Assembly: GCA_963977015.1 (NCBI GenBank)
Contig: CAXBMO010000013.1
Span: forward strand, 96,001 to 160,000
Length of the DNA stretch: 64,000 nucleotides
Source of the DNA: an uncultured bacterium
Lineage (GTDB): Bacteria; Verrucomicrobiota; Verrucomicrobiia; Verrucomicrobiales; DEV007
Direction: 5' to 3'
The notes under the pieces are model-generated. The model was given only the letters and a program-made list of their open reading frames with translations. It had not been told where the DNA came from and ran no database searches. This document shows, piece after piece, positions 54,638-62,476 of the stretch; position 1 is the first letter of the stretch, and each line of letters starts with the position of its first letter. Position numbers and translations under genes: made by a program.

Positions 54638-55834
54638 CTACCGAAACAAATCCGGACTTGGCCAGCGGTCTTCAATCCCCCGGATCTGCTCCTCCACCGG
54701 CGGCTTGACTTTGGGCCAGCTGTGCGGGCGAATCCGGACGATGCGCCCAGGGCGGAAGCCTTCCAGCACGAGCGGAATTTGGATCTGCACCTGAATCCCA
54801 CTGCCGCCAAAGGCTGGGTTTTTCTCGGATTTCTCCACCGCGACCACCCTGCCATCCATTCCATCATGGTCCGGCCAAAAGGTGCGCAGGGTGTCTTCCG
54901 CTGCGGCCATCTGAGCGCCTGTATTGGGCGTGAAATCGGCATAGAGTGATTCGTCCATGCCGCCAAATAGCGTCGCGGTCACGGTTGCCTTTCCGAATTC
55001 TCCATGGCTGACGGCATCGACCCGGGCCGGCATCCAACGCAGGCGGATGTGGCGCACGTGGCTGCCTTTTTGGCGATCCGTTGCGACCTTCATCGCAGCG
55101 TCGTCGAGCCAAACGTCGGCGGCGTGGAATTGTTGGTAAAGATACCGGGGGTGCCAGGTCAGGCCGAGCTGGATTGCCTGCCCATCGAAGTTCTTCTTGC
55201 CAGATGCCGGCCAGGATCCATCTGCGATGAGATCGGTGAGTCCGAGCAATTCGCGACCGCGCCAGATGCGGGTGGAGCTGTCGATCGTGACCTTGTGCTC
55301 GCCGCCAAGCCCTTCGCCACCGTCCTCCCGATCAAGGCTGGCGATCAGTTGACCTTCTACACCGTTGATCTCCACGGCGGTCAGGTTCCAGGCTTTGCCT
55401 TCGCGCAGACAGAGGCTCGGACCGTCCTCCAGCAGAATCGCGTGATTCTCAGCAGGCTGCGTCACGTTGTTTCCCTTCACCACGGGGACGGAGGAGGTCT
55501 TCGGATCGGGCGGGAGGTAGAAGCGGCCATACAGCACGGTTCCGATCGGAATATCCCGCAACTCGGCCGGCGCGCCGCGATAGCGGATCATGCCGTAGGG
55601 CAACATGGCGAAGTGATGCAGTTTGCCTTCGTGGTAGTGGCCGTTCACGTGCAAGCGCAGGCTTCCGCGCCGATTCACGTGATCGACGAAGACGAGTTCG
55701 CCGCGGTAGGATTTGGCTTCCTCGATGGGTGGAAACTGCCCCGGTTCCGGGCGGAATGGTTCGTCATCGGCAATCGCAATTGGTCCGATGCAAACCAGAA
55801 GGAGTAAGCAAAATGAGAAGGTGGTTCGACTCAT
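54638..55834 (-). CDS. Exported hypothetical protein
   Basis: Signal peptide; ATGA overlap with the DUF1552 gene. Confidence 0.75.
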
Positions 55835-57183
55835 CCCAAATCCAGTTCGCGGTTGCTATCGCCAAAGTTCTCCGTTTCCACACCCATCTTCTGCGCCATG
55901 GTCAGGAGGAGGTTACTCATGTGCGCATCGCTGTTTGCGGGGCGGCCACAGAGGCGGTAGTGCGTCCCTGGCTGATCCAGTTGGTATCCGTCGAAGTGTC
56001 CCTGGTTGTGGTCGAGGTGGCGCCCATGCTTGAGCCCCAGGCCGGTTCCACCGGCGAACACCAACGGCAGGTTGGCGTTGCCGTGGCTGTGCCCGTAGGC
56101 CATGCCGCTTCCGAACAGCGCCATCGTGGTGTCGAGCAACGGACTGCCGTCGAGGTCCTTGGTCTCGGCGAGGCGCGAAAGAAAATACCCAAATTGCTCG
56201 ACCGCAAACGTGTCACTCTGGGTCAGCGCTTCCATGTGATTGGGATCGCCGTTGTGATGGCTTAGCGCGTGGCGCGACTGGGTGATGCCCAGCTCGGGAA
56301 TCGGCAAGCCCTGACCTTCCAAGCCGCTACTGAAAGTGGCGACCCGGGTGGCGTCGGTCTGAAATGCGAGCACGATCAAATCGTAGACGGTCCGAAAATA
56401 TTCGCCGGCCTCGGTTTGCGGCACGTCCCGATTGGCGCGCTTGCGATCGGTGTCTGCAATTGACGGGCGCGGAACGTCGAGCCAGGCGTCGGCGCGATCG
56501 GTGCGAATCTCGGTTTCCCTGACTGCGTTGAGATACTGCTCCAGACGTCCCTTGTCCTCCACTCCCATTTTCGTTTCCAGCTTGCGAACTTCTTCCAGAT
56601 TCGAGTCGAGCACGCTGGCCTTGCGTCGCAGCGCCCGCCGTTGGGCTTCCGTGCCGTTCTTGGGTTCCTCAAACAGGTGAGCAAAAATCTGACGGCAGCG
56701 GCTCATTCCCGGAAGCCGGATTCCGTCCGCGGTCCAGGCCAACGACTCGCCCTTGTTCGAAACCTCGAGGGAATGAAAGCGAGTGTGCGGTGACGTCACT
56801 TCCGCCATTTTCTGGTCCACTGAAATCGTGTTGCGATCCGTAGGCCCAAGCTTTCCACCCGTCAGCCAAATCTTTTGGCAGTTGTGATGATGACCCAGTC
56901 CGCCCGGATGGTGCATCCCACTGATCGGGGTGACCACGTTGCGGTGTTTTTCCAGCGGCTTGAGCGAACGCGAAAATTCGAAGTCTTCCCCGGGCGTGGT
57001 GATTTGAAAGTCGAGCGTATTGACGCCGTTCGGGATGTAGACGAACGCGCTGCGTTTTGGCTTGTGAGCTTCAGCCGCTCGGGCGGGGTTCATGCATTCG
57101 AGAAGCGGCAACGCGATAAAGCTGCCGAGTCCGCGCAACGCATGGCGGCGATCGATCAACCAGGATTGGGTTTGGATATTCAT
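55831..57183 (-). CDS. DUF1552-family protein
   Basis: RRHALRG...[30 protein letters not shown] and HSHGNANLP motifs. Confidence 0.88.
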
Positions 57184-57188
57184 GAAGT

Positions 57189-57237
57189 TTTTAGCGGTTA
57201 GCTTTTAGCTTTTAGCTTTTAGCGGTTAGCTCTGAGC
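57189..57237 (+). repeat. Heptamer array NNTTAGC x6 plus one degenerate unit
   Basis: ttttagc ggttagc ttttagc ttttagc ttttagc ggttagc tctgagc. Confidence 0.92.
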
Positions 57238-57578
57238 TTCTGGAGAAATGCGTTAAGCATGCGTTTGATTTCGGTGAGTTCGGTGGTGATTTGGCTGAAT
57301 TGGGGCGGAGAAAGGTATTGGAGATCGTGGGAGAGAATGAGTTGGTATTCCAACTCCGTTGCGGAGCCCATACTGTGGTCGAGGAACCGCGCAAAATCCG
57401 CGTCCGAATTTCTGCCACAGCCTTCCGCGATGTTGGTGGGCACGGAAGAAGCGGATCTTCGCATTTGTGAGATGAGACCATACCTTTCTGAATTCGGAAA
57501 TTCCTGGGTGATGCGGTAAATTTGAAGCGTGAGTTGGTGCGATCTCTCCCATATTTGCAACTGCCGAAAATCTTTCAT
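57219..57578 (-). CDS. Four-helix-bundle protein (23S rRNA IVP / TIGR02436-like family)
   Basis: FRQLQIW, FPNSERYGLISQMRRSASSVPTNIAEG and GSATELEYQL motifs. Confidence 0.95.
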   Translation of the reverse strand: MKDFRQLQIWERSHQLTLQIYRITQEFPNSERYGLISQMRRSASSVPTNIAEGCGRNSDADFARFLDHSMGSATELEYQLILSHDLQYLSPPQFSQITTELTEIKRMLNAFLQKLRANR

Positions 57579-57588
57579 GGCTCCTAAA

Positions 57589-57619
57589 GCTAATTGCTAA
57601 CTGCTAAAGGCTAACGGCT
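57589..57619 (+). repeat. Heptamer array GCTAANN x4, inverted relative to 57189-57237
   Basis: gctaatt gctaact gctaaag gctaacg gct. Confidence 0.9.
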
Positions 57620-60043
57620 TTGAATCAATTCAGACAGGGCGACTGCGCGCACGACGTCTTTGAGTCGGGATTCGTTCCTTTTCGCCTCCGAGACAATGGA
57701 CTGGATTTCATCGTGGTCATCCACCGTCATGACGCGTCGCAGGGCGTAGGTGCAGAGGTGCTCGACGAAAGCTTCCAAAAAGCGGTCACGATCCTCGAGC
57801 AAAAGCTGTTTGAACTCGTGAGCATTCGCGAACTCGCGTCCATCCGGCAAGATGCCGCTGGGATTCACCGGTGGATCCTCGCCCTTGCCTTTCTCCACCC
57901 GTTCGTGGGTGCGCCATTGACCGATCGCGTCGTATTGATCAAACGCCAGGCCGAGCGGGTCAATATTGCGATGACAGGCGGCGCAATTCGCATCCTGCGC
58001 GTGCGCTTCCAGCTTTTGGCGAATCGTTGCCTTGGGACTGTCCGGTGGATTCGGTTCAATTGGATCGACGTTCGCCGGCGGTGGTGGCGGGGTTTTGCCG
58101 AAAATCGCCTCGCTGAGCCAGACTCCACGATGAACCGGGCGATGCCGCGTGCCGTCAGACGTAAGCCCCAGAATGGCCCCCGTCGTCAGAAGGCCGCCGC
58201 GGTGAGCTTCCTGAGGCAGCGAAACGCGTTGAAAACCCGAGGTTTTGGGATCGGGCAAGCCGTAGAATTCGCACAAACGCGGATTCGCAATCGTCCAGTC
58301 GGAACTGATGAACGTATCAAGCGGCAGGTTGTTGGCGAAGACTTCGCGGAAGTAGTGCACCACTTCTTCGCGCATGCTCGCCTCCAGCCACACGTCGTAT
58401 TTCGGGTAGAGCTTGAGATCTGGCGGGAACATTCCCAGACGATGCAATTGGAGCCATTGCCGGGGGAAGTCGTCCATGAACCGGTCGATTTTTGAATCCT
58501 CCAGCATGCGGTCCACCTGCGCTGCCAGGTTCGCGCGGTCACCGGTTAGTTTCCCTTCCCGGGCAGAATCCCAAAGTGCTTCATCCGGCATCGAACTCCA
58601 AAGGAGATAGGAAAGGCGGGAGGCCAATTCATAGTCCGTTAGTCTTTCGCGGGGAGTTTCTTCTCCCTCGACCAAATACATGAAATTCCGGGAGGTGAGC
58701 ATCCCGAGCAGTGCCACCTGATAGGCTGCGAACACTTCTTCACCGGCCTTGCGCTCCGAATCGTAGGAACGCAGGTAGGGCTCGAGTTCCGTCCGCGATA
58801 CCGGGCGACGCCAGGCGCGCTCGGCGAATCGTTGCAGATGATTGGCAACCTCTTCTTCGGTCGCACCTTCACCCGGCAATAGCCCTTCTCGGGTGGCGAT
58901 TTCGGTTTCGCTGACGATCGGGCCTTCCCACTCAATCCAGTCCAACAGCACGGCCGAGTAAATGCCATTTCCCTCTTCATCGAACATCTTCGGCGCCGTT
59001 GGATTCAGCAATTGGGTTTCGCTGCTGTGGGTGAAGATGTAATGCGAGCTGGAGAGCGCATTGCGATAATGCCCGCCTTTCTGCCGGTTGATGATGTCGG
59101 TCGCCACGACATTGAAATCGAGGTTCGTGGGCATCTCCAAAAACACTTCGAACTCGATGATCTCCGGCTCATCTTCCGTTGCGAGAATATCGAGCTCGAT
59201 CAGCCCCTCATTGGCTCCCTCAACGGTCGCTTGGCCAATCCGAAGATGCGGTGTCTGCCCGCCGGGGGGACGAATTCCGCTCACCTGCATTCTTGCGCGA
59301 TACAGCCCGCTCTGTTCCGGACCAATGTGGCCAAACCAGTTCGATCTCAGGGCCTGTTGCGTCCGTCCCGGAAAAATCAGGGCCCGCAGCGGACGTTTGA
59401 TTCCAAACCGATCGAGGTATTGCTGCTGAGTTTCCCCCCCGCGATAGCGCGTATCCGCCGCGGTCTTGAGCACTTTCTTGGGATCGACCGGTTTTTCGGG
59501 AAACGCCCGGGTCAGCACCGTCTCGGCCGCGCGGTAATAGCGTTCCACGTGAGAGGGCGCCAGCGAAAGCTGCGATCCGATGCGCTCAAAGCCGTGCCAG
59601 CGCGGATCCTCGTTCAACTCACCCGGTTTGGCTGGATCATAGCGCACGCCGAGCAGATCGTAGACCGTGTTCTCGTATTCCCTGCGGCTCAGGCGGTAAT
59701 GTGCCACCGGCGGGCGCGCCGCCATGCGGGCTGCGCGGCCTTCGCGAATGCGGGAATCAAGCTGTTCGATCACCGTCGCGATTTCGTTTTCGGTTGGCAG
59801 CGGTTCGTCTTCCGGCGGCATTTCACCCGAATTGATTCGCTCCACGATCTCCGCCCAAAGATGGCCATTGGCACCGGATTTGAAATCGCGCGACAACTCG
59901 TCGATTCGGAGGTCGCCCTTTGCCTTGTCCGGGCCGTGGCAACGCACGCAATGCGTTTCGAGAAATGGCTCAAATGGTTCTGCGGCGGAAAGGATCGTTG
60001 CCGGGGAAAAACAGGCGACGATAATGAAAAACAAACGGGTCAT
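57611..60043 (-). CDS. DUF1592/DUF1588-type planctomycete cytochrome c domain protein
   Basis: CVRCH and CAACH heme motifs; [26 protein letters not shown] and PVHRGVW motifs. Confidence 0.9.
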
Positions 60044-60311
60044 GTATGGGGTTAGCTATGGGGATTCACGTTGCGGGCGAAGCCTGATTTTCATTTCATC
60101 AGAAAAAATAAGGGAGAACGCGCTCATTTCCCGGTTCTCACGGCACACTCTGAGACCAGTGTCACAGTCAGCCTGAGCAGGCAAATTGATAGCTGGGTTT
60201 CCGCGTGTTCCATCGACCATCGAACGGGGCCTCCCGTAAAGTGGGCATTTTAAGCCTTCTTTTTTGTTAGATTGTGGCGCGCCAAGCTAAAGAGTGGTGA
60301 GATTATCAGTC

Positions 60312-60887
60312 ATGCCCCGCCATTTCGTTCCATCAATTCCCGATTCCGATGCCCCATGGGCGGGATATGTGGCGGAGATCGCACGGGCTCAGCCGGGGCT
60401 GCGGGCCTTTTTGCGAACACTGCTGCCTTGTGCCGGAGACGCGGATGACGTTTTGCAGGAAACCAACCTGGTGCTGTGGCAGAAACGCGAGGAATACGAT
60501 TCCAGCCGCGAATTTGGTCCTTGGGCCCGTCGCATTGCCTATTTTCAGACGCTGGCGCATTTGAAGCGGCGTACCCGGTCCCGGGAGTCACAATTCAGCG
60601 ATGAGATGCTGGAACAGTTGGCGGTTGAGACCGAGCGGCGTTCGGATGCGCTGGAGGATCGCCTCCAGGCGTTGCGGTCCTGTCTGGAGAAGCTGCCTGA
60701 AAAAGACCGTGATTTGGTGAAGGCGCGCTACGCTACGGGGGCTTCCGTCAAAGCCATGGCCGGTGACATCGGCCGATCGGCGGATGCGGTGTCGATGCAC
60801 CTGTATCGGTTGCGGCAAAAGTTGGCCGGCTGCATCGCGCAGTCGCTGAAGCTCGGTGATTTCCAGGCGAAAGGAGGGGAGGGATGA
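60312..60887 (+). CDS. ECF sigma-70 factor
   Basis: ADDVLQETNLVLW, F.PWARRIA, CLEKLP and LYRLRQKL motifs. Confidence 0.93.
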   Translation: MPRHFVPSIPDSDAPWAGYVAEIARAQPGLRAFLRTLLPCAGDADDVLQETNLVLWQKREEYDSSREFGPWARRIAYFQTLAHLKRRTRSRESQFSDEMLEQLAVETERRSDALEDRLQALRSCLEKLPEKDRDLVKARYATGASVKAMAGDIGRSADAVSMHLYRLRQKLAGCIAQSLKLGDFQAKGGEG

Positions 60888-62476
60888 GCACGCCTCGCTT
60901 CTCAGAACTTCTACAACAGGTGTTGAACGGCGATCGCGACGATATCTCAGCAATTGAGAGCGCGATCAACGAGGATGAGACTCTCCTGGCCGAGTATCTG
61001 GATCAAGTCGAGCTGGACGCCTTGCTGAGCTGGGAATTGGGGGACGAGGTCGTGGAAATGGATGAAACGGTTGCTGCTGAAAAGGTCATCTGGTGGCGAT
61101 TCGCGTCTGGACCGCTCGCCAAGGTCGCCGCGGTGATTCTATTGCTCGGTGTGGGCTTTTTCCTGGGGCGGCAGCGGTCAAACGACAACTCCGCCATCGT
61201 CTCATCTGCGCCTGTTGCCGTGTTGATCGATAGCGAGGACTGCGAGTGGGAATCGGGGGAGATGCCGCATTCATTTGGAGCCTCATTTGCTGCCGGCGAA
61301 ACCCTCCGCATCAACTCGGGAATTGCCCGATTCGCCCTTTGGAGTAAGGCGGGAGTTGCCATTGTCGGACCTGCGGAAATTGAGCTCGTTTCCAGCGAAG
61401 AAGTCTCGGTGCGCTACGGGAGCGTGAGCGCCTTTGCGCCGGATGAGGCCATTGGATTCAAGCTGACCACGCCGGATGTGGAGATCGTAGATCTGGGGAC
61501 TCGGTTTGCGGCCAGTGTGAGGCAGGATGGCACCACCGATGTGCACGTGTTTGAAGGAGAGGTTTCGGTGCAGAGCCGCAAGAACCATCCGTCGGGAGAA
61601 CTCGTGACCACGGGCCAGGCACGGAGATATCACTCGGGCGGCGATCAGCGCACGGAAATCGCGATTGCACCGGAGCAATTCGAGGAGCCGCCGGAGTTGG
61701 AGCAGTTGCTGGCGTTCACGGCTTCGAGGAATGGCGCTTCCGGTTTGGAAACCCGGGCCGAGATGGCGAGCGAACCGGGGGTGATTGCCGCCCATCGCTT
61801 CGTGGGCGCGGGTGGGGAATTGGACGGGCAATATGGGGGAACGGGGTTTGCCGCTCAACCCTGGTGGGCGAGTCCGGACTTCACCCGGGTCATTCCCTTG
61901 GTGAAATCCCATTCCGGAGGAGCCCGCGCGGGGGGGTATCTACTGGTGCGCGGGCGAGACAAGGCGGAGCCGTTTGTGGCCAACCGATTGAGCCGCAGGT
62001 TGGCCGGGGAATTGCCGAACACGTTCTTCTTCACCCTGCGGGCGAGTTATCACGGACTCGATGAGGACGATTTTTTCTCGCTCTGGATCGATTCGAACGG
62101 GAGAGAGGACGCGACGCATGCCAATGTGCCCACGCTCGGGATTCGCGAGGGTCGCTATTTCGCCCGTCTCGACGTTGAGCATGCTGCGGTTGCGGGGAAT
62201 CCACGGGACGGTGAGGAGTTTATCATCGTCGGCCGCTATGTTTGGAATGCTGAGGACCGGCACGAAGAAATCGCCCTTTGGATCAATCCGTCGGGTGCTG
62301 ACGCTGCTTCGCCTGATGCCGTGTTGCAAAGGCCGATGGCGAAGGCGCCTTCCGGGAAGTTTTCTTACCTCGGGTTACGAATTGGGAAACATACCGAAGT
62401 CAGCGACCGTTTATTGATTCACAGTTTTGCGGTCGGCACCAAGTTCCCATCGGCTCTTGCCGCAGTTGAGCCCTAA
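60884..62476 (+). CDS. FecR-domain anti-sigma factor with C-terminal beta-rich domain
   Basis: TM helix, then GFKLTTP..EIVDLGTRF and VHVFEGEV; ATGA overlap with the sigma gene. Confidence 0.88.
   Translation: MSTPRFSELLQQVLNGDRDDISAIESAINEDETLLAEYLDQVELDALLSWELGDEVVEMDETVAAEKVIWWRFASGPLAKVAAVILLLGVGFFLGRQRSNDNSAIVSSAPVAVLIDSEDCEWESGEMPHSFGASFAAGETLRINSGIARFALWSKAGVAIVGPAEIELVSSEEVSVRYGSVSAFAPDEAIGFKLTTPDVEIVDLGTRFAASVRQDGTTDVHVFEGEVSVQSRKNHPSGELVTTGQARRYHSGGDQRTEIAIAPEQFEEPPELEQLLAFTASRNGASGLETRAEMASEPGVIAAHRFVGAGGELDGQYGGTGFAAQPWWASPDFTRVIPLVKSHSGGARAGGYLLVRGRDKAEPFVANRLSRRLAGELPNTFFFTLRASYHGLDEDDFFSLWIDSNGREDATHANVPTLGIREGRYFARLDVEHAAVAGNPRDGEEFIIVGRYVWNAEDRHEEIALWINPSGADAASPDAVLQRPMAKAPSGKFSYLGLRIGKHTEVSDRLLIHSFAVGTKFPSALAAVEP

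Follow-up and report, generated by a model that had tools for sequence, protein, structure and literature searches.

PF05635 is a large protein family with solved structures, to which, to our knowledge, no function has been assigned, and how rRNA intervening sequences (IVSs) arose and spread is a long-standing question. Heptamer arrays occur between genes in cyanobacteria, where they are called STRRs, and elements termed 'tandem inverse repeats' have reportedly been described earlier. The helix-45 IVS of Coxiella burnetii 23S rRNA carries, like the locus analysed here, an S23p/PF05635 gene and, as described in PMC4990558, is excised by RNase III. PF05635 genes have also been reported in rRNA insertions of CPR (10.1101/2024.02.27.582315), between cas genes (PMC3936711), near DGRs (PMC10053308) and as strain-specific genes (PMC8700078), and Avd has been described as a pentamer that binds structured RNA (10.1101/2023.10.23.563531). 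In the literature covered, largely openly available main texts, PF05635 cassettes with arms are described only in rRNA, and none at mRNA junctions.

The locus lies in a 64,000-nucleotide stretch of DNA from an uncultured bacterium of the Verrucomicrobiales (the window), in which an initial annotation, made from the letters, had proposed an intron-like cassette: a four-helix-bundle gene between inverted heptamer arrays, inside a DUF1592-DUF1552 operon. We find that this architecture is real and family-wide. New here are a slot that takes several kinds of cassette, the co-divergence of cassette and host genes, transfers bounded by the arms, and a controlled result against selection at the RNA level.

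Anatomy of the cassette and its protein

The features of the locus are listed in Table 1. As the initial annotation had read it, and as we confirmed on the minus strand, the DUF1592 gene ends AGC CGT TAG (57619-57611) within the array cgTTAGC ctTTAGC agTTAGC aaTTAGC; its reading that the TAA of the 119-aa gene lies within a GCTAAnn array ending 5 nt before the DUF1552 ATG was likewise correct. Three extra T's, absent from that annotation, stand between the TTAGC array and AGGAGCC-ATG (ATG at 57578). The cassette is 436 nt long and has a simple two-arm layout with no third arm; its non-coding bases number only ~70, all of them array or spacer. In the minimum-energy fold, AGGAG pairs with CUCC near the 3' end of the PF05635 gene, and it is not kept in L010, a copy at 82% identity. 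The 3' arm of a strain 98% identical lacks 14 nt, equal to two units. The interval 57000-57800 showed no site resembling a promoter or terminator, the 64-kb window no tRNA, and 56900-57900 no Rfam match (up to E 5). Upstream of the DUF1592 operon, and divergent from it, an ECF sigma factor and a FecR-like protein are encoded at 60294-62476 (+).

Table 1. Features of the cassette and its host genes (positions in the window)
Feature	Position	Strand	Remark
Upstream host gene, 810 aa, PSCyt1/DUF1587/DUF1595/DUF1592/DUF1588/DUF1585	57611..60043	-	last codons and TAG inside 5' arm
5' arm, five AGCnnTT-phase heptads (TTAGC core)	57585..57619	-	overlaps DUF1592 stop codon
Shine-Dalgarno-like AGGAG	57581..57585	-	2 nt 5' of the PF05635 gene ATG
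PF05635 / TIGR02436 four-helix-bundle gene, 119 aa	57219..57578	-	profile matches, purifying selection
3' arm, six GCTAAnn heptads	57189..57230	-	holds the TAA of the PF05635 gene
5-nt spacer, 3' arm to DUF1552 start codon	57184..57188	-	
Downstream host gene, 450 aa, DUF1552 (HXXSHH)	55831..57183	-	ATG at 57183

The two arms are complementary, as had been claimed, with an arm-to-arm alignment score of 44 vs a maximum of 20 in 40 shuffles, and the 461-nt region has a folding energy of -117.8 kcal/mol (z -3.05; 0/100 shuffles as good). Within this fold the arms pair as 5-6-bp helices interrupted by internal loops, the longest unbroken helix being 6 bp, and the stem of the focal copy is indeed slidable, its best register scoring 17 vs 17.7 for shuffled unit orders. 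Lower GC in the cassette was also borne out (48% vs 58-60% in the flanking genes and 56% in the genome). Since GC3 lies below that of the flanks in 10/10 loci with arms of the focal type (type A), this is no sign of recent arrival, and we rejected low GC as evidence for recent transfer; the ten include loci whose synonymous divergence equals that of their flanks. The adjacency of the two host genes, given as normal in the initial annotation, is usual in this genome: for 23 of the 36 DUF1552-like genes, a DUF1592-like gene is found at most 3 kb upstream, and 16 of these 23 pairs lie within 54 nt.

The 119-aa protein reaches 141.6 bits against PF05635 (cut-off 33.8) and 138.8 against TIGR02436 (cut-off 24), in a family for which 4293 candidates were scored and 3516 relatives reach E 1e-30 or better. 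It carries the motif RxxxSxxxNxxE, with R41, S45, N49 and E52 invariant in 45 sequences, and its predicted model (pLDDT 96.7) has four helices and a TM score of 0.93 to 2GSC. The closest solved structures, Xcc0516 (2GSC) and BT_0352 (2RLD), are PF05635 proteins as well (rmsd 1.1 A; Z 21.1 and 16.9 to the model), and the five chains in each structure suggest, by analogy, that the focal protein is a homopentamer. Kinship to 23S rRNA IVS proteins and to Avd, which the initial annotation had listed as known, is real. Avd (4DWL, 8UB7) shares the fold of the focal model (Z 14.7-15.1, rmsd 1.7-1.9 A over 106-112 residues), but its identity to the focal protein is 13-14%, and the latter scores under both Avd cut-offs, PF22296 and NF033474 (30.5 of 40 and 35.5 of 80 bits). 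Moreover, Avd has an adjacent reverse transcriptase and template repeat, whereas the neighbours here are DUF1592 and DUF1552; the three reverse transcriptase hits in the focal genome are all on other contigs. Fold searches with the focal model returned no nuclease or recombinase above the helical-bundle background. Substitution patterns indicate that the PF05635 gene is under purifying selection: dN is 0.12 with near-saturated dS between the focal copy and L010, and dN/dS is at most 0.09 in 19/21 type-B pairs, those with unsaturated dS.

Heptamer arms across the PF05635 family

Inverted arms, mostly of period 7, scored above all 40 shuffles at 175 of 205 family loci (242 hits, minus 30 partial or duplicate and 7 without flanks). 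By sample, these were 74/81 relatives, 62/76 loci from named genomes of many phyla and 39/48 from viral contigs. An arm score of at least 24 was reached by 89% of true pairs vs 12% of 3000 mismatched cross-locus pairs. Paralogues with inverted arms of a different, covarying motif, which the initial annotation had proposed to look for, were seen both in the same genome and across the family. The focal genome has six PF05635 hits, the sixth partial, and the five loci (tblastn) each have repeat-like inverted flanks of different sequence. Across the family, motif similarity drops with protein distance (Mantel r -0.32, n=134; the most extreme of 300 permutations was -0.13), and such tracking of the protein clade can be mere linkage.

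Arms most often have five units (51 and 56 of 115 loci, with six units at only 12 and 8), a mode that depends on a 5-of-7 match rule and has no independent control set. Unit order is modestly mirrored between the arms, beyond chance in 55 of 81 loci and falls below the null in 23, which makes the arms true inverted copies; these counts come from an array-only test, as a test that included the non-array flanks (95/106 above the null) overstates the effect. At the 141 loci with enough flank, kin included and therefore not independent, the 5' arm begins a median of 1.5 nt from the upstream stop, and a co-oriented gene lies upstream in 104, downstream in 107 and on both sides in 90. A third, direct copy of an arm flanks the gene in 10/115 loci and in most type B and type C junction cassettes (defined below), so that one side of the gene has a full hairpin and the other a directly repeated arm.

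Several further features of the arms were apparent. In 154 cassette stems (21/205 loci were dropped at 85% identity, then 30/184 without a scored stem), stop codons occur in all three frames in 36 5' arms vs 13.6 in shuffles and in 42 3' arms vs 5.1, which follows from having a stop in a unit that repeats every 7 nt; an AG core is common to most 5'-arm motifs (105/154). The focal genome also holds heptamer arrays with no paired arm or gene nearby, at C4:1-77, the end of C51, C28:3505-3560, C28:71630-71670, C39:32757-32789 and C4:349875-349934, and two of its contig ends break in one array, which belongs to the 5' arm of the C51 paralogue. The Beggiatoaceae motif TAACTGA lies 3' of four-helix-bundle genes at L187, L236, L261 and L321, in the orientation of the arrays described in PMC4679880.

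Occupancy, descent and exchange at the DUF1592/DUF1552 junction

We compared 92 distinct DUF1592/DUF1552 junctions of the focal subfamily, after dropping 23/138 loci without an upstream gene and 4/96 junctions with an upstream match below 50%. A PF05635 gene occupies 18 of them, in three types: type A (5 junctions) has the TTAGC-like arms of the focal cassette, type B (8) has a protein ~27% identical and arms GTTCTTG/CAAGAAC, and type C (5) has a 163-aa protein and 8-nt arm units. Other inserts of more than 200 nt are found at 12 junctions, five of them GxxExxY-type between long inverted repeats. Arm remnants were flagged at nine, two of which are unconvincing; L012 and L015 keep type-A arms, the gene being gone. 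Empty sites, whose presence in orthologous operons the initial annotation had proposed to check, do exist: 37 junctions measure at most 30 nt. A further 16 measure 31-200 nt and lack the motif. These states interleave among hosts 93-99% identical, on a 92-row host tree that is a quick version only; L141 (type B) and L143 (GxxExxY), for example, have hosts 99% identical. Within the focal genome itself, 2/23 paired junctions hold a four-helix-bundle gene and 1/23 a GxxExxY gene. The unit is thus shown to be present, absent, reduced to its arms or replaced at one and the same junction.

The other occupants deserve description in their own right. At L134, L143, L155, L163 and L172 a 254-265-aa PF13366 gene (confirmed by profile for L155) sits between ~30-nt inverted repeats at the same junction, and in several of them a type-B-like arm remnant follows this GxxExxY gene, suggesting layered insertions; L163 has several duplicated hairpins. 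L356, at another DUF1592/DUF1552-like junction of the focal genome (C6:314736-315077), is a GxxExxY (PF13366) gene with one internal stop, placed between two direct copies of a repeat-built hairpin, and L354 and L355 have repeat-like inverted flanks as well. A reverse-oriented two-gene insert with no obvious arms, encoding a retroviral-type aspartyl-protease-like protein of 115-126 aa and a 69-aa ORF, occupies the junction at L131, L132, L140 and L154, and a genome of the same genus carries a reverse-oriented Rpn/YhgA-like gene (PF04754) there (L008:2854-3946). A second site-faithful slot is suggested by L371, L372 and L380, three loci in which genes of a sister four-helix-bundle lineage (55-57% identical) come after a single shared upstream gene end.

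Homologues at least 68% identical to the focal protein lie at the DUF1592/DUF1552 junction in 12 of 12 cases (the focal one included), against 2/23 at 54-68% identity and 0/78 below 54%, in a count that took in 7 of 59 viral loci. Protein identity tracks that of both host genes (Mantel 0.80 and 0.83, n=14). Between the focal cassette and those of L362 and L363, synonymous divergence is 0.47 vs 0.44/0.43 in the flanks, and in most pairs cassette and flanks have diverged equally, so that most of the pattern is explained by plain vertical descent accompanied by loss. Together with the host-tracking identity, this marks the focal copy as one inherited vertically for a long time, and the majority of empty alleles have probably lost the cassette.

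Two pairs depart from this pattern. Synonymous third-position difference is 0.12 in the cassette vs 0.42/0.38 in the flanks for L364/L365 (p 7e-9), and 0.11 vs 0.37/0.29 for L164/L166 (p 2.5e-5); in all, cassettes are far closer than their flanks in 2/46 pairs, and three pairs are further apart at p <0.01. In both cases identity is 90-97% across the gene and ~72-89% outside the arms, and the tracts stop at the arms, which would not be expected of recombination driven by the flanks. Chimeric assembly across the repeat arms may account for these two tracts. As observed, they show that the cassette alone occasionally moves between alleles whose flanks differ by ~20%. The proposal of a mobile element devoid of a transposase therefore stood in part: there is a discrete unit of gene plus arms with recent transfer limited to the cassette (2/46), but it does not roam freely (12/12 at one junction).

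Other candidates for movement were set aside. A transfer at L038 was not adopted, as keeping it with its host sister L002 was not rejected (AU p 0.176), and strain X2, with 2/360 differences in the gene vs 31/1341 nt, was too weak to be counted (p 0.03). A joint in run X1 that skips 57230-57592 was rejected as an empty allele: it has a depth of 2, 28 letters on its shorter side and 25 other letters between, and is probably another organism's hairpin. Among the junctions compared, we found no circle and no exact empty allele at the nucleotide level; no target duplication was evident, the empty alleles being too divergent in the gap to fix boundaries.

Explanations for the arms and comparison with known systems

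A stem selected in mRNA is expected to tolerate G-U pairs, but not A-C. In the 154 cassette stems G-U and A-C are found 156 vs 177 times, compared with 37 vs 0 in a control of 57 terminator-like hairpins of the focal genome. The same holds inside stems (131 vs 135), at isolated mismatches (43 vs 45) and at core positions (25 vs 33), and sense folds show no greater stability than antisense folds (64 vs 74 of 154 stems). The absence of a G-U excess, a focal helix of at most 6 bp and the absence of an Rfam match speak against the inference of the initial annotation that the element hides in operons by loop-out, cleavage or splicing. Nor is it a self-splicing group I/II intron, as no catalytic RNA core was found by Rfam up to E 5. 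The symmetry of the arms fits double-stranded DNA sites, hairpins on either strand or templated copying better than it fits an RNA helix.

We consider it unlikely, then, that the element acts in RNA, its arms pairing in the mRNA to loop out the gene and being cleaved (RNase III-like) or spliced, and its protein attaching to the periodic stem in the way that Avd attaches to an RNA stem-loop. The precedents are suggestive: the Coxiella IVS, with heptamer repeats and a 28-bp terminal stem, is described as cut by RNase III (PMC4990558), an enzyme that the focal genome encodes, and all five Avd protomers are described as contacting an RNA stem-loop with flipped-out bases (10.1101/2023.10.23.563531), by analogy with which the RNA stem could be bound by protein and have positions that are deliberately unpaired. 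The mirrored unit order (55/81 loci above chance, 23 lower) and arms placed a median of 1.5 nt from the upstream stop, with co-orientation on both sides in 90/141 loci, would suit it too, but selection in a gap of 4-30 nt would also lead to such close placement and co-orientation, the register of the focal stem is unspecific, and neither the pairing statistics nor the searches for an intron or ribozyme given above favour RNA. At the other extreme, the arms could be slippage-generated heptamer microsatellites or STRR-like hairpins, and the gene a passenger moved only with the operon. Whole units do change in number between close strains (the 14-nt deletion), period-7 runs number 20 vs 3-6 for other periods in the focal genome, and heptamers are described as over-represented in bacteria through polymerase slippage (PMC4692102). 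We nevertheless regard this as very improbable, given inverted arms at 175/205 loci, a score that 89% of true pairs but only 12% of cross-locus pairs attain, five paralogues with five different motifs in one genome, a motif that follows the protein tree across phyla, and transfer tracts that end at the arms.

It is also quite unlikely that the cassette is a domesticated regulator, a ring-shaped pentamer that, by analogy with TRAP, would sit on the 3' array and adjust, on the host's behalf, how DUF1552 is translated or how stable its mRNA is. Purifying selection and the long shared divergence of cassette and operon are consistent with such a role, as are 3'-type arm remnants just before the start codon (L017, L034, L088, L095, L167), the TAACTGA arrays described just upstream of start codons in Beggiatoaceae (PMC4679880), and the placing of TAACTGA downstream of the gene in 4/154 loci and upstream in 0/154. 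A host function sits poorly, however, with a cassette present at only 18/92 orthologous junctions and with unrelated cargoes and motifs that replace each other in near-identical hosts; runs of at least three GCTAA units occur at only two loci in the genome (the focal cassette and C39), so there is no regulon. A stronger claim, rather unlikely in our view, is a widespread homing system with neither nuclease nor transposase, in which each ring of five subunits would read five 7-nt repeats, one for every subunit, by a protein-specific code; arrays left at an operon junction would serve as landing sites for units of gene plus arm, and GxxExxY cassettes would exploit the same slots. If homing of this kind were true, the orphan heptamer arrays that precede start codons in many bacteria would be traces of it.

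The explanation that we prefer, and to which we give an even chance, is a site-faithful, IVS-type cassette at the DUF1592/DUF1552 junction, exchanged at the DNA level via its arms and probably recognised by its own pentamer. Exchange would proceed by recombination or slippage within the heptad arrays, an incoming unit of gene plus arm entering or converting an array that shares its motif and is already in place. This would account for site fidelity, for hairpins that lack a gene and for the layouts of hairpin plus direct arm. Recombination between direct arm copies would leave gene-less hairpins, and the reverse reaction would insert the gene only where a matching array exists. The pentamer would probably recognise its own arrays of about five units and promote or protect the exchange, host enzymes supplying the chemistry; the modal unit number of five parallels the five chains in both solved homologues. 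The stem in mRNA would be a tolerated by-product and not a selected function, cut by RNase III when the cassette lies in rRNA.

If the arms are both the protein's target and the boundary of exchange, the PF05635 family gains a substrate, the excess of 7-base repeats in bacteria is offered a cause, and genes have a minimal route of movement that needs no nuclease of their own. The DUF1592/DUF1552 junction is a good system in which to test this, as four-helix-bundle genes of three lineages, each with its own motif, occur in this one slot beside a GxxExxY cassette, remnants and empty alleles.

Among known mobile units, IS/MITEs and integron gene cassettes also have inverted ends, gene-less derivatives and single-gene cargo, and some PF05635 loci share with them a hairpin-gene-hairpin layout. 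Unlike either, the focal unit has no transposase or integrase in or beside it, and its sole cargo is PF05635; unlike IS/MITEs, it shows site fidelity and not dispersal, with one copy in the genome and the next 61% identical. Known heptamer arrays, STRRs among them, are often found directly before start codons or as inverted pairs, and so are those described in PMC4679880 and PMC4692102. The TAACTGA arrays of Beggiatoaceae (PMC4679880) and the GGGAATC arrays of Xanthomonas (PMC4692102) are intergenic with a 7-nt period, like the focal arms; the latter bracket a four-helix-bundle gene, a link that the available parts of those two papers do not make.

The closest parallel remains the Coxiella IVS as described in PMC4990558. 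Its length of 428-444 nt brackets the 436 nt of the focal cassette, and both have terminal inverted arms with tandem heptamers of strain-variable copy number, a fixed site and patchy occupancy (PMC4990558). They differ in that the focal stem is broken every 5-6 bp and the Coxiella stem is nearly perfect over 28 bp, and in that the focal ORF shows purifying selection and an SD-like site whereas the Coxiella ORF is reported as decaying (PMC4990558). The focal cassette has the complementary termini enclosing an ORF that mark an rRNA IVS, but it stands at a protein-coding stop-start junction and not, as in Coxiella (PMC4990558), inside an rRNA gene; it works like an IVS, and its location places it outside that class.
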